In this document: one piece after another, positions 12,782-44,349 of the stretch | Layout: every line of letters starts with the position of its first letter | How positions within the stretch are numbered: position 1 is the stretch's first letter | From: Escherichia phage dhaeg | Sequence record: MN850609.1 | Strand: one strand, 5' to 3' | Length of the DNA stretch: 64,000 nt | Notes under the pieces: model-generated | The model's input: the letters and a program-made list of their open reading frames with translations, nothing else | Database searches by the model: none | What the model was told of the DNA's origin: nothing | Translations under genes and position numbers: made by a program

Positions 12782-14314
12782 TTAAGCAACTTTAATAATG
12801 AATAGGATGGACATAGTCCAAGGACGGTTTTCGTTACCAATTAACCCTTCACTGTTTAGGGTAGTTCTTGAATCTCGTGAACCGGAACCGTCAATTTCGT
12901 ATCCTTCGTTTGTAAAGTAAGAACGGTTATCCCAGTCTAATCCTTTACGAGTACCGGCAAAGTTGGAACGAACAGTGTTACCAAAAGCACCTGCGTTATC
13001 ATGTTCACCAAAACCACCTGCATGTTTATGGAACCGAAGTTGTTGAGCTTGTACTGTACCGTGTCCATATGAACCACAACCTACACCTAATTTTGGTTTG
13101 CCTTTGGCGTCGTTACCTTTGGCGTCTCTAATTCTAACGTTGGCGTCCCATTCTTTTAATCCACCGTCATTAGTTTGGTTTGCACCTCTAGGATATAATC
13201 CACGGAAGTCAGGACGAGCACCAGTTGAGCCCCATTTACTACCAACTACGTTTCGGAATCCTTGCTCACCAGAGTTACCACCATCACAAACGGCCCAACC
13301 TGCAGGGATATTGTTAATTTGGCCTCCCCACATAACGATAGTACCAATAGGAACAGAATCTTTTAATTGGTCGACAGTAACAACATCACGCCCATTACGA
13401 CGTAAAGTACCATTAACGTTTAAAGTACCATTAATAGTACCACCGGTGGTAGAAATAACGTTAGCATTATATGCCAATGCTGTACTTCCATCGCCAGAAC
13501 CCACGGTAGTTGTGGTTTTAAGAAGGCCTATTCTACCGGTATTACCCGTTCTTGACAAAAGGGTTTGAGGCGTAATAGCTTTATTTGCATCAATTCCGGC
13601 CGAAACTTCAGCTCCAGTGGCTAATTGAACCAGTCCACGTCGAGAAGTATTAGAAGTTAAAGAAATAAGCCCTGATGGAGAAATTGCGACGCCATTAGTC
13701 AATGTGCCATTTGCCACTTCGGCATTTGTCGCGATTCTAACAATACCTTCAGTAGTTTGTGTTGCACTTGCATAAGTTGGTAAGGCCGATGTAGCGGCTC
13801 CAATTGCCTGTGCGGTTTTAAGAGGCGTCATAGCCGTAGTATCATCTGTACCCGCTAAAGCCGCTGGCAAGGTTGAAATCTTGAGTACACCTGTAGTGTT
13901 CTCTGTGGCTAAACGATTGGTGAATGTATAATCTATAGTAGCCTTCAAAGATGATGCTACGATTGCAGCCTGGGTCTCTGTCCCAGCGATGGCCTCATCA
14001 TTAGTAGCATAACGTGTGATACCTACATAGGTTTCAGTTGCTTGAGTAGGAATGTCCAAGCGGCCTTTTAAAGTAGCCGGGGTCACAGCAGAGAAAGTAT
14101 CAGTGCCATCAATAACTTCTTGTTGGGTGGCTAATCTAATAATACCCTGTTCTGTTTCGGATGCGGCCGGAATATTACCTGTAACACCTATAGCAGAAAT
14201 GGATGATAAGGCGTCTTGGACGTTGGTAATACTAGGGTCAAAATTCGACCCGGTAGGGTCGAATGTTTTAAATTCCGATTTATCACTTATATGTTTTAGT
14301 GTATTTGTAGACAT
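12782..14314 (-). CDS. 12: short tail fibre gp12
   Basis: 510 aa; N-terminus ...KFDPT.SNF.P.ITNVQ... resembles T4 gp12; synteny. Confidence 0.9.
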   Translation of the reverse strand: MSTNTLKHISDKSEFKTFDPTGSNFDPSITNVQDALSSISAIGVTGNIPAASETEQGIIRLATQQEVIDGTDTFSAVTPATLKGRLDIPTQATETYVGITRYATNDEAIAGTETQAAIVASSLKATIDYTFTNRLATENTTGVLKISTLPAALAGTDDTTAMTPLKTAQAIGAATSALPTYASATQTTEGIVRIATNAEVANGTLTNGVAISPSGLISLTSNTSRRGLVQLATGAEVSAGIDANKAITPQTLLSRTGNTGRIGLLKTTTTVGSGDGSTALAYNANVISTTGGTINGTLNVNGTLRRNGRDVVTVDQLKDSVPIGTIVMWGGQINNIPAGWAVCDGGNSGEQGFRNVVGSKWGSTGARPDFRGLYPRGANQTNDGGLKEWDANVRIRDAKGNDAKGKPKLGVGCGSYGHGTVQAQQLRFHKHAGGFGEHDNAGAFGNTVRSNFAGTRKGLDWDNRSYFTNEGYEIDGSGSRDSRTTLNSEGLIGNENRPWTMSILFIIKVA

Positions 14315-31969: not shown

Positions 31970-32043
31970 GGCCCTGTAGCTGGACGGTCAAGCGAGCGAC
32001 TCATAATCGCTGGATGGTGGTTCGATTCCACCCAGGGCCACCA
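31970..32043 (+). tRNA. tRNA with CAU anticodon (Met or lysidine-type Ile)
   Basis: Hand-folded cloverleaf: acceptor GGCCCUG/CAGGGCC, anticodon stem AGCGA/UCGCU with loop CUCAUAA, T-arm GGUGG-UUCGAUU-CCACC, encoded CCA. Confidence 0.75.
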
Positions 32044-32047
32044 ATTT

Positions 32048-32122
32048 GGATGTGTAGCTCAGTGGTAGAGCAGTTGACTGTTAATCAATTGGTCCATGGT
32101 TCGAATCCATGCATGTCCGCCA
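32048..32122 (+). tRNA. tRNA-Asn (GUU)
   Basis: Acceptor GGAUGUG/CAUGUCC (two G-U pairs), D-arm GCUC-AGUGGUA-GAGC, anticodon loop CUGUUAA, T-arm CAUGG-UUCGAAU-CCAUG, encoded CCA. Confidence 0.75.
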
Positions 32123-32126
32123 AATA

Positions 32127-32202
32127 CGAGGCATAGCTCAGAAGGAAGAGCAAGGACCTTCTAAGTCCTGGGTCGTAGGTTCGATCCCTACTGTCTCGAC
32201 CA
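32127..32202 (+). tRNA. tRNA-Arg (UCU)
   Basis: Acceptor CGAGGCA/UGUCUCG, D-arm GCUC-AGAAGGAA-GAGC, anticodon stem AGGAC/GUCCU with loop CUUCUAA, T-arm GUAGG-UUCGAUC-CCUAC, encoded CCA. Confidence 0.8.
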
Positions 32203-40991: not shown

Positions 40992-41224
40992 GTATTGCGA
41001 TTTATATTAAATCTGAGTCATGCGATTCTTATCTGTATTCCTATGACACTGGAACATCAGAAGAGAAAATCAAAGAAGATTTAGAAAGCGACTTGGATAT
41101 GTTCCGACCTATTTCTGATTATATGGTCCAAATATCTGATAGTGAAAGTCCGTCATTAGAAAATAGACTTGAAATTTTAATGAGCGACATTTTTAACCAA
41201 TCATGGAAACGAGACGATGAGTAA
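40988..41224 (+). CDS. hypothetical acidic protein
   Basis: 78 aa; ATGA overlap with upstream gene. Confidence 0.5.
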   Translation: MSIAIYIKSESCDSYLYSYDTGTSEEKIKEDLESDLDMFRPISDYMVQISDSESPSLENRLEILMSDIFNQSWKRDDE

Positions 41225-41666
41225 AAAAGTTAAAGAACTATCCGCCGGTATTTTGTTTATGACCGCCGATAAAGAATTGGTTATGGGTCGTGTAACAGGT
41301 TCTCGTAATCCAGAGAATATGCGTCATAAATGGGACATCCCTAAAGGTCATGTCGAACCGGGTGAAGAGCCTATTCAAGCAGCAATGCGTGAAACTGAAG
41401 AAGAGATTGGATTCACTGCATACGATCCTGCGTTCCTGAAAGACCTAGGTGAGTTCAAATATTCTAGCAATAAGAATCTACACCTGTTCTTATATACTGT
41501 GCCTGTCGAACACGAGCAGTTCAAGAATTGCAAATGTACAGCTTACCACACGTTCCCTGATGGTCGTACGATTCCTGAATTTGATGCCTTCGCCTTGATT
41601 AAACGCCCGCAATGGGAATACGTCATGGGCCCGTCGATGTTTAAGGTTTTAGATTCGCTCTTTTGA
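41217..41666 (+). CDS. nudE: Nudix hydrolase
   Basis: 149 aa; Nudix box GHVEPGEEPIQAAMRETEEEIG; position immediately upstream of e as in T4. Confidence 0.85.
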   Translation: MSKKVKELSAGILFMTADKELVMGRVTGSRNPENMRHKWDIPKGHVEPGEEPIQAAMRETEEEIGFTAYDPAFLKDLGEFKYSSNKNLHLFLYTVPVEHEQFKNCKCTAYHTFPDGRTIPEFDAFALIKRPQWEYVMGPSMFKVLDSLF

Positions 41667-41696: not shown

Positions 41697-42185
41697 ATGG
41701 ATATTTTTGATATGTTACGTCAAGACGAAGGTCTTGATTTAAATCTTTATAAAGACACCGAAGGTTATTGGACTATTGGTATAGGCCAATTGATTACTAA
41801 GAACCCATCTAAAGATGTTGCTCGCGCTGAACTTGATAAGCTTATGGGTCGAGTTTGTAATGGTCGTATTACTATGGCTGAAGCCGAACAACTCTTTAAT
41901 CGTTCAGTAGAAAATGCCCGTAGAGCTATAACGCGCAATCCTAAATTGAAACCGGTTTATGATGTGCTAGACGAAGTTCGTCGTTGCGCATTGATTAATA
42001 TGGTCTTCCAAATGGGTGAAGCTGGTGTAGCGGGATTTACCAACTCTCTGCGTATGCTCCAACAAAAACGTTGGGATGACGCCGCAGTTAACCTGGCGCA
42101 GTCTCGTTGGTACAAGCAAACCCCTAATCGTGCCAAGCGTGTTATCGCCACCTTTAAAACAGGTACTTGGGCCGCTTATAGATAA
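41697..42185 (+). CDS. e: endolysin (T4 lysozyme)
   Basis: 162 aa; ...[26 protein letters not shown] ... [52 protein letters not shown] matches recalled T4 lysozyme. Confidence 0.95.
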
Positions 42186-42190
42186 AAGCA

Positions 42191-42219
42191 GTTTACATCT
42201 CCGGTAGGCATGATACTAT
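42191..42219 (+). promoter_or_regulatory. early promoter cassette for denV
   Basis: GTTTACA-16-TACTAT plus gacctatcaactacaggagatta leader; near-identical copy at 44321. Confidence 0.6.
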
Positions 42220-42245: not shown

Positions 42246-42662
42246 ATGACTCGTATCAACCTTACCTTAGTATCTGAATTGGCTGACCAACACTTAATGG
42301 CTGAATATCGTGAATTGCCACGTGTTTTCGGTGCAGTTCGAAAGCATGTTGCTAACGGTAAACGTGTTCGTGATTTTAAAATCAGCCCTACTTTTATCCT
42401 TGGTACAGGCCATGTCACATTCTTTTATGATAAGCTTGAATTTTTACGTAAGCGTCAAATCGAGCTTATAGCCGAATGTTTAAAACGTGGCTTTAATATC
42501 AAGGATACTACGGTCCAGGACATTAGTGATATTCCTCAGGAATTCCGTGGTGATTATGTTCTTCACGAAGCTTCTATCGCTATTTCACAAGCCCGTTTGG
42601 ATGAAAAAATTGCACAACGTCCTACCTGGTACAAACATTATGGTAAGGCGATTTATGCATAA
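42246..42662 (+). CDS. denV: endonuclease V (pyrimidine dimer DNA glycosylase)
   Basis: 138 aa; almost identical to recalled T4 DenV ([50 protein letters not shown]...). Confidence 0.97.
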
Positions 42663-42800
42663 GGGAGCAACCTGGACCTCACAATTCTGTGAGGGACTCC
42701 CGCCAACCTGTAATAAGGTCGAGCCCAAGTGCGGTAATGGGTAAATGCAGAAAGGGACGAATTAATGTGCCAAGGAACGGCCCACAACTAAGAGACAACT

Positions 42801-43328
42801 ATGAAATTTTTAACCCCCATTTATCTAACCTTAATGCACGCCTTCGCTGAACGCGCCATTGAACGTTTAGACTCAGACCAATATACCTGGTATGAACCTA
42901 CTTCAAGAATGCAAGAGTTTGGTACTCTTCGACTTGACGGTGGGCGTCAAACAGGTAAAACAAGTGCCATTGCCCAGTTCGCAGCTGATTGGGTTTCCAA
43001 GGGTAATGATGTGATTGTTATGTCAAGTTCTTCGCACCGGTCACGCGAAATTTGTAATGTAATAAAAAGGGTTTCTAAGGCCCAACCACACCTTCAAGTA
43101 GAAGGTCCTGGGTTTGTTGTATATGATACCGTACGTTCATTTTTAGACGAAGATAACTTCCATAAGTATCGTGGTCTATCAGTTACTCGATTATTGATTA
43201 TTATCGAAGAGCCAATGCGCCTTCCAGCGATGGATAAGTTCTATGAAGCTTACCAGGTAATGATGAATAAATTTATGTGCCAGGGTTCTAAACCTCTGCC
43301 GCTGTTCTTTGTGATAGGAATGCAATGA
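42801..43328 (+). CDS. small P-loop NTPase-like protein
   Basis: 175 aa; Walker A-like GGRQTGKTS and Walker B-like LLIIIEEP. Confidence 0.55.
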   Translation: MKFLTPIYLTLMHAFAERAIERLDSDQYTWYEPTSRMQEFGTLRLDGGRQTGKTSAIAQFAADWVSKGNDVIVMSSSSHRSREICNVIKRVSKAQPHLQVEGPGFVVYDTVRSFLDEDNFHKYRGLSVTRLLIIIEEPMRLPAMDKFYEAYQVMMNKFMCQGSKPLPLFFVIGMQ

Positions 43329-44320: not shown

Positions 44321-44349
44321 GTTTACATCTCCTGTAGACGTGGTACTAT
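44321..44349 (+). promoter_or_regulatory. early promoter cassette for regB (direct repeat of the denV cassette)
   Basis: GTTTACA-16-TACTAT; about 60-bp near-identical repeat of 42185-42245. Confidence 0.6.

Follow-up and report, generated by a model that had tools for sequence, protein, structure and literature searches.

The 138 nucleotides (nt) between the denV stop codon and the start of a P-loop protein gene in Escherichia phage dhaeg (sequence record MN850609.1) belong to an RNA family undescribed in Rfam. This element occupies positions 42663-42800 of the window, by which we mean the whole 64,000-nt stretch of DNA that was analysed, and it makes up the entire spacer between denV and a homologue of the T4 gene vs.8. 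We conclude that the element is very probably a selected, folded, sense-strand RNA. It can be divided as follows:

42663..42701, + strand: 5′ domain, an outer helix (P0) and an inner hairpin, with a folding z-score of −3.2 and compensatory changes
42700..42744, + strand: portable core of ~45 nt, matched by covariance model R1 at 68.7 bits (E = 2e-15)
42745..42787, + strand: extension at the 3′ side specific to T4-like phages, a conserved word plus a hairpin
42788..42803, + strand: unstructured linker and vs.8 start, with a weak Shine-Dalgarno sequence (AAGAG, 42790-42794) and the ATG at 42801-42803

We aligned 39 distinct core sequences from all lineages, which gave the consensus ACCUGURRNAAGGUCGAGC-N5-6-GCGGUAA. 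The core is closed by a stem, P1, in which CCA (42703-42705) pairs with UGG (42738-42740); in an alternative register, CCCG (42699-42702) pairs with UGGG (42738-42741). The first P1 pair joins the nucleotide before ACCUG to the nucleotide after GGUAA, and it is A-U in 20 sequences, U-A in seven, C-G in six, U-G in five and G-C in one, with none of the 39 unpaired. Its covariation score is 0.21, as compared to 0.07 for shuffles, and 0 of 500 shuffles reached this score. Inside P1, RNAalifold predicted a 4-bp hairpin (ACCU-GURRNA-AGGU) and a 2-bp hairpin with a free loop (GC-N5-6-GC). These correspond in the window to P2′ (ACCU 42706-42709, loop GUAAUA, AGGU 42716-42719), followed by CGA (42720-42722), and to P3 (GC 42723-42724, loop CCAAGU, GC 42731-42732), followed by GGUAA (42733-42737). 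The junction strands CGA and GGUAA are nearly invariant, and the sole variant of P2′ is a double change, from A-U to G-C, in the second core copy of locus L027. The core is best drawn as a putative small three-way junction formed by P1, a 4-bp hairpin and a 2-3-bp hairpin. In P1, 20 G·U pairs were counted versus 6 A·C combinations, and the element always lies on the same strand as the flanking genes; we therefore conclude that the structure is formed by the sense-strand RNA. Folded by itself, the core is no more stable than shuffles (z = 0.04), yet it is >90% identical across phage families, which fits a fold that depends on tertiary contacts or on a partner.

The hexaloop of P2′ (window 42710-42715; columns 11-16 of alignment A2) carries UAA, UGA or UAG at positions 2-4, and never UGG. 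The sole exception among the sequences is AUAAUA in L060. Either a structural rule of the purine-purine kind or conservation of a stop triplet could account for this pattern.

In the 5′ domain, P0 pairs GGGAG (42663-42667) with CUCCC (42697-42701), and the inner hairpin consists of CCUCACA (42677-42683), the loop AUUC and UGUGAGG (42688-42694). This nested hairpin, which the original prediction had described, folds on its own at −17.3 kcal/mol (z = −3.2), and 0 of 200 shuffles were equally stable. Among 13 distinct close relatives, 99.3% of pair cells are paired, as compared to 33-48% for slid controls. Compensatory double changes occur at three pairs: A-U to G-C in P0, C-G to U-A in the hairpin, and U-A, U-G or C-G at one pair. 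Other T4-like phages have a longer hairpin at the position of the 5′ domain, and their equivalent of P0 covaries (AAAGG/CCUUU, AAAGC/GCUUU or AAAGA/UCUUU). The letters directly after the 5′ hairpin are GGGACUCCCGCC, with no U-tract.

The 3′ extension includes the word AGGGAC/AUGGAY at 42754-42759 and a hairpin (GCC 42769-42771, loop AAGGAAC, GGC 42779-42781) whose loop reads AAGGAAY across T4-like phages. The stem of this hairpin is invariant in 36 of 36 sequences; an optional fourth pair is A-U in 27 and A·C in five. The first in-frame ATG of the relatives lies 15-38 nt past the GGCC of the hairpin.

Folding of the whole 138 nt did not differ in energy from shuffles on either strand (z = −0.07 and −0.21). 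Given that the folding energies of the whole segment and of the core are unexceptional, the significance of the element rests on conservation and covariation. By energy, the 5′ hairpin alone is significant. The original prediction had called the segment GC-rich: G+C content is indeed 50.7%, versus ~40% around it, but the excess is modest, and a stretch inside gene e is just as rich. The A-over-T skew, 0.36, is the more unusual aspect of its composition. A lack of conservation and covariation in related phages had been named as evidence that would count against a functional structured RNA; both conservation and covariation were found, and they lend strong support to this premise of the original prediction.

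The element is widespread among phages. BLAST matched the segment at E ≤ 1e-3 in 1,065 of 50,697 phage records, most of them unannotated at that spot, with one place per record in nearly all genomes, and the hosts of the matching phages are all Gammaproteobacteria. The source phage is T4-like, of the Dhakavirus type. Its denV-vs.8 stretch is 97% identical to those of dhabil and CLB_P2, in which the 138-nt segment itself is 100% identical; nucleotide identity of the element between the window and T4 is 88.8%. The upstream neighbour varies among T4-like phages, being denV in T4 and the window, an internal-protein (ip) gene in JS10, EC121 and LC53, and small open reading frames (ORFs) in RB69. 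The downstream neighbour is mostly vs.8, and in one lineage an ip gene (MKTYKEFITEAKA...). This lineage comprises L016, L019, L024, L028, L194 and L212; the ip gene lies 36-38 nt 3′ of the element, and the protein has a capsid-targeting N-terminus, MKTYKEFITEAKA. The ip gene there replaces vs.8, and the element therefore sits in the hypervariable ip cassette region.

The core also recurs, at >90% identity, outside the T4-like phages. Besides many genera of Straboviridae, its carriers include rV5-like Vequintavirinae (L004), N4-like Schitoviridae (KpCHEMY26, L226, and related contigs), the unclassified 45-kb coliphage Ivi (L005) and the uncultivated lineages L051/L197, L060, L061/L200, L202 and L223. 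L051 and L060 have no relatives among isolates, and the similarity of L223 to jumbo phages is only weak. The flanking helices differ from lineage to lineage and again covary; the upstream hairpin, for example, is GAGUG/CACUC, GAAUG/CAUUC or GUGUAU/AUACAC. Outside the T4-like phages the core is mostly found on the strand of the transfer RNA (tRNA) genes, in or beside a tRNA array. In L202 it sits between tRNA-Thr and tRNA-Gly; in L223 a tRNA array precedes it by 46 nt; and in rV5-like and Schitoviridae-like contigs tRNA-Arg lies 250-550 nt to its 3′ side. L196, L054 and L226 likewise carry it downstream of tRNA arrays. L060 has an intrinsic terminator ~21 nt beyond the core. What lies downstream differs between phages: vs.8, an ip gene, phrog_3330, phrog_17440, an HNH endonuclease gene, tRNAs, or a terminator alone, and the downstream proteins in other phages are unrelated PHROGs.

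T4-like phages of Aeromonas carry a relative of the element that lacks ACCUGUAA. This relative is unannotated, ~120 nt long and 95% conserved across genera, and it shares with the T4-like element the sequence AAGGUCGAGC-N5-GCGGUAA and the words UUACAU, ACGG and AUGGAC. Its start is ~10 nt past an early promoter (GTTTACA-N17-TATCAT), and 500 nt separate it from an array of 12 tRNAs on its 3′ side. Its positions are:

L066 189-308: Aeromonas relative, in Aeromonas phage 65 (NC_015251, about 111.56-111.68 kb)
L065 2451-2570: Aeromonas relative

We favour, at a little under an even chance, the reading that the element is an autonomous recognition module and not a leader dedicated to vs.8, because it has no constant downstream gene and occurs in tRNA-array and terminator contexts. 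A near-invariant, unstable junction within a freely covarying closing stem would be the signature of a recognition surface or of a catalytic core. The invariant junction would then serve as the docking surface for a conserved trans-acting partner, the candidates being a protein of host or phage, an RNA molecule and a small ligand. Such a module could set the fate of the RNA that carries it, through processing, stability or translation, or could titrate its partner; alternatively, it might take the form of a processed stable RNA. The readings offered by the original prediction are partly supported, and of these a small RNA and a processing or stability element are both candidates. It is possible, though doubtful, that the core represents a portable class of phage RNA that acts in trans in early infection. 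Such an RNA might act against a conserved enterobacterial factor that binds or cleaves RNA, as its decoy or inhibitor, in counter-defence or host takeover, or it might represent a new class of small ribozyme or aptamer. Unrelated virulent phages would pass it between them horizontally, along with tRNA arrays and internal-protein cassettes, themselves counter-defence loci.

Several points weigh against the recognition-module reading and the fold drawn for it. P2′ and P3 are near-invariant, so covariation neither backs nor contradicts either. An alternative irregular hairpin, GGUC(GA)GC/GCGGU, fits the core equally well, and the near-invariance of the core allows no choice between the two. There are also rival pairings: the strands of P0 and P1 overlap, and GUGCG of the core can pair with a downstream YGYGC beside the 3′ hairpin. 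These competing and possibly exclusive pairings hint at a switch, which would favour a cis-regulatory reading. The T4-like elements always lie directly 5′ of an ORF, as expected for a cis-acting leader. Lastly, the ~90% identity across families could be due in part to recent horizontal transfer, and not to constraint alone.

If the element were a cis-regulatory leader, that is, a riboswitch or a protein-responsive operator, the core would be the aptamer, and alternative pairings with the 3′ extension would control translation or stability for the next gene, vs.8 in the window. A junction that P1 closes and that keeps its unpaired nucleotides invariant is what one typically sees in aptamers. 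The element resembles junction-type riboswitch aptamers, such as purine-type three-way junctions, in its covarying P1 around a near-invariant core, its two short hairpins, its near-invariant junction strands and a fold that is little stable without a partner, and the terminator of L060 is a possible expression platform. However, the element has no clear expression platform and no consistent regulated gene, and no one class of downstream gene is constant across the loci. In rV5-like phages, a consensus sigma-70 promoter stands in the interval from the element to the next ORF. The spacing of 15-38 nt to the ATG is not fixed, and the vs.8 ribosome binding site is unpaired rather than sequestered. 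No Rfam riboswitch matches. The unrelated downstream features, the ip gene in place of vs.8 and the variable spacing likewise weaken the original prediction's suggestion of a regulator of the downstream P-loop gene, and we consider a cis-acting leader unlikely.

A second alternative is that the element is a self-cleaving ribozyme or an RNA-processing signal that would split early polycistronic transcripts and tRNA-array precursors. Small ribozymes beside phage tRNAs, such as hepatitis delta virus (HDV)-like and hammerhead ribozymes, are a known arrangement. Like the hammerhead and HDV-like/theta ribozymes found there, the element is small (a junction of ~45 nt), has invariant core nucleotides within covarying flanking stems, and recurs in or beside tRNA arrays, which require processing. 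Unlike them, it matched no Rfam 15 ribozyme family even at E ≤ 10, and no conserved candidate cleavage dinucleotide was singled out. We regard this proposed function as distinctly unlikely.

Processive antitermination of the type mediated by the HK022 put RNAs would require the nascent element to bind RNA polymerase and carry it through Rho-dependent or intrinsic terminators, in which case long early operons and untranslated tRNA arrays would be protected. A put RNA is ~70 nt long and has two stem-loops (PMC9378689). The element is similar to putL and putR in that it is phage-encoded, is a sense-strand RNA, is independent of protein in sequence terms and lies on early transcripts, and in having two adjacent helical domains with conserved non-helical nucleotides, with a conserved host machine as the obvious candidate partner. 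A host range limited to Gammaproteobacteria fits host RNA polymerase as that partner, and in Aeromonas phages the element comes right after an early promoter, with a tRNA array further downstream. A position past an early promoter and ahead of terminators, as put RNAs have, holds for the Aeromonas variant and is plausible in the window. It does not hold for copies 3′ of tRNA arrays (L223, L196, L054 and L226) or for those in rV5-like phages and Ivi, where promoter-like sites lie between the element and the next genes, so that this placement is not consistent. There is no similarity of sequence or structure to put RNAs, and R1 had no match at E ≤ 1 in the whole HK022 genome. The element is also present in N4-like Schitoviridae. 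N4-like phages transcribe their early and middle genes with their own polymerases. We conclude that put-type antitermination has only a slim chance of being correct.

Slimmer still is the chance that the element functions at the DNA level, as a recombination anchor or mobile-cassette boundary of the ip/denV region, or is a plain stabilising or terminating hairpin that lacks a specific function. It lies exactly at a mosaic boundary, with 92.6% identity to T4 upstream versus 59.8% downstream, swappable ip cassettes flank it, and the annotation pipeline used for H117 called the hairpin a 'terminator'. PeSLs (promoter-early stem-loops) are composite stem-loop-plus-early-promoter motifs that occur as a set per genome in hyperplastic regions (PMC4122927). 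Like PeSL cassettes, the element is a conserved non-coding sequence bordering swappable gene cassettes in the T4-like early region. Unlike them, it has no promoter, occurs once in the 64-kb window, has a 33-nt invariant core, and is found in unrelated phage families that lack the ip region. The compensatory changes and the asymmetry of G·U over A·C indicate pairing of sense-strand RNA. An intrinsic terminator was rejected, since a signal scan of 42663-42800 found no promoter-like or terminator-like site and no U-tract follows the hairpin. The original prediction had also raised a remnant of an intron or mobile element, from which the lack of an Rfam intron match, the single copy in the window and the selection maintained with compensatory changes all lead away.

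We examined the coding status of the segment using 79 distinct homologous sequences, in the frame that runs through the core. ORFs called mechanically over the segment (a GTG-initiated ORF at 42689-42850, 53 aa, and an ORF at 42487-42744, 85 aa) are not conserved, consistent with the original prediction that no convincing ORF lies between the denV stop and 42801, the coordinates of which are exact. An ATG or GTG 15-18 nt 5′ of the core is common in T4-like phages, and several lineages keep the frame open across the core. However, a start codon 5′ of the core is missing in ~40% of the 79 sequences (11 have none, and 21 have only the AUG inside GGUAAUGGG), the stop of the frame ranges from +27 to +639, 1-nt indels occur inside the core, the P3 loop is 5 or 6 nt long, and the three codon positions of the core are equally invariant. 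A rare-codon leader (AUA-AGG) was rejected along with other upstream ORFs, since neither starts nor stops are conserved and the AUA position varies freely. No open frame with conserved start and stop was found among the homologues, either as a vs.8 extension or as an upstream ORF, and the short translated ORF that the original prediction had named as possible counter-evidence is accordingly not supported.

The T4 RefSeq entry and X04567 place the start of vs.8 (ORF 64.0, 219 aa) at an ATG within the hairpin of the element:

L001 1535-2194 = NC_000866 64253-64912, reverse strand: T4 vs.8 gene model, start inside the hairpin

The N-terminal extension that this start implies is broken in the window (a 1-nt indel and a stop), in EC121 (a stop) and in RB69, and vs.8 homologues align from the ATG equivalent to T4 Met41. 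The T4 vs.8 start is probably annotated ~40 codons too early. We conclude that a coding function for the element, as the vs.8 extension or as a short upstream ORF through the core (QPVIRSSPSAVMG), is hardly credible.

Comparison with known RNA families gave no identity for the element. A search of the 4,227 covariance models of Rfam 15, which the original prediction had proposed, found 0 matches at E ≤ 10 in window 42400-43100, and hence no family at the element. For eight core-bearing loci searched at gathering thresholds, Rfam reported tRNAs, one distant group I intron and nothing else, and the Aeromonas variant gave no match at the element at E ≤ 10. A tRNA or transfer-messenger RNA was rejected, since ARAGORN called tRNAs in the window only at 31970-32202 and no locus had a tRNA call over the core. 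Mimicry of the tRNA-Tyr anticodon loop (CUGUAAA) was also rejected: the loop is 6 or 8 nt long rather than 7, and GUA is variable. The stable RNAs of T4, rnaC and rnaD (species 1 and 2 of the tRNA cluster), resemble the element as small phage RNAs; they are encoded with tRNA arrays, near which the core lies outside T4-like phages. They showed no BLAST or covariance-model similarity to it. In T4 and the window, 6-10 kb separate the element from the tRNA genes; the best R1 match in T4 66.4-75.5 kb scored 9.6 bits (E = 0.43) and is away from both RNAs.

A resemblance to the 3′ end of 16S ribosomal RNA (GUAAYAAGGU ... GCGGU) was noted. We rejected 16S mimicry, since the Y is variable and R1 has no match on the rrn operon, including the 16S 3′ end. 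Antisense pairing to rrn was rejected, with the best duplex energy matched by 17 of 60 shuffles. A CsrA sponge was rejected on the basis of four GGA in 138 nt, as compared to ~3 expected by a rough estimate, with none in the invariant core. The element does not appear to derive from the host, given that BLAST against 5,426 E. coli genomes gave no match. A scan with a 17-base pattern of one genome per bacterial or archaeal species (596 Gb) found at least 120 stretches, about the level expected by chance. Among the 134 matches listed, the few with a CCTGTA-type 5′ part are viral contigs, and the cellular ones without it lie in G+C-rich, apparently coding DNA.

Exact-sequence and topical literature searches found the element undescribed, with overlap with the 10,006 unnamed candidates of PMC10690425 unchecked. 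A review of T4 treats riboswitches and trans-acting RNAs as uncharacterised in this phage. The element is apparently an undescribed, widespread phage RNA motif, carried by >1,000 phages with sequenced genomes, which infect Enterobacterales and represent no fewer than three recognised families or subfamilies. T4, among the best-studied genomes, is one of them. At minimum, these findings offer a corrected vs.8 gene model and a new RNA family for annotation pipelines. The portability of the element, its location next to tRNA arrays and ip cassettes, and a junction that hardly varies make it a candidate that can be tested directly; work on it could reveal a phage-host RNA interaction, an aptamer or a ribozyme not seen before. 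If it acts in trans, no RNA of this kind would have been recognised in T4 before it.

In the window, the order of genes on the + strand is nudE, e, denV, the 138-nt gap and the 175-aa P-loop protein, with the following features around the element:

31970-32202: tRNA genes Met, Asn and Arg-UCU (ARAGORN), 10.5 kb 5′ of the element
41217-41666, + strand: nudE; gene e follows it and precedes denV
41697-42185, + strand: e, between nudE and denV
42192..42219, + strand: T4-type early promoter-like site from a consensus scan (TTTACA-16-TACTAT, TG-extended), just 5′ of denV
42246..42662, + strand: denV (endonuclease V), upstream neighbour, 92.6% nucleotide identity to T4 denV; stop TAA at 42660-42662
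42801..43328, + strand: vs.8 homologue, P-loop protein of 175 aa (phrog_1488), downstream neighbour, start ATG at 42801; 59.8% nucleotide and 38.5% amino acid identity to T4 vs.8
44322-44349: second T4-type early promoter-like site (TTTACA-16-TACTAT), 1.5 kb 3′ of the element

By its match to the consensus, the promoter-like site at 42192..42219 is likely to be the source of a transcript that carries denV, the element and vs.8, and the element is presumably transcribed within this early polycistronic mRNA. R1 found one core copy in the 64-kb window; the next best match had E = 0.58. In contrast to this single copy, PEi20-like T4-type phages have two tandem copies, the second of which is diverged (AAGGCCAGUCCGCGACGGUAA or AAGGUCAGCCCGCGGCGGUAA) and keeps its helices through compensatory changes:

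L027 5094-5136 and 5205-5249, − strand: tandem core copies
L031 9022-9066 and 9136-9178, + strand: tandem core copies; L219 also has them

Further observations concern the surroundings of the core in single lineages. In rV5-like phages, the 17-nt word AGAGGGCTTGAWAGTGC occurs on both sides of the element, 5′ and 3′; this word could be a promoter specific to the phage, or another RNA motif:

L042 about 60-80 and 195-215: AGAGGGCTTGAWAGTGC word; the same in L044, L198, L205 and L221
L004 about 1940-1960: AGAGGGCTTGAWAGTGC word

Phage Ivi, and no other, has ATCACCTCCT 45 nt 3′ of the core (L005 2085-2094; PV841871). This sequence is identical to the anti-Shine-Dalgarno end of 16S ribosomal RNA, and the 38-aa ORF annotated there looks spurious. 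In N4-like Schitoviridae, the core lies in an unannotated gap of ~1 kb near the tRNA array. The gap consists of repeated hairpin units, and the hairpin just 5′ of the core has the conserved loop word AAGCGGA:

L226 1368-2372: Schitoviridae gap (Klebsiella phage KpCHEMY26); also in L011, L018, L029, L037, L189, L196, L209 and L220

The uncultivated 75-kb lineage of L051, which is without a close isolate, has an ORF of 178 aa at L051 2195-2731, 230 nt 3′ of the core, that resembles an HNH-type homing endonuclease, as assigned by eye from its cysteine/histidine motifs. Lastly, the uncultivated 96-kb contig L060 carries, in addition to the core, a group I intron at 12784-13079 (Rfam RF00028, 54 bits).

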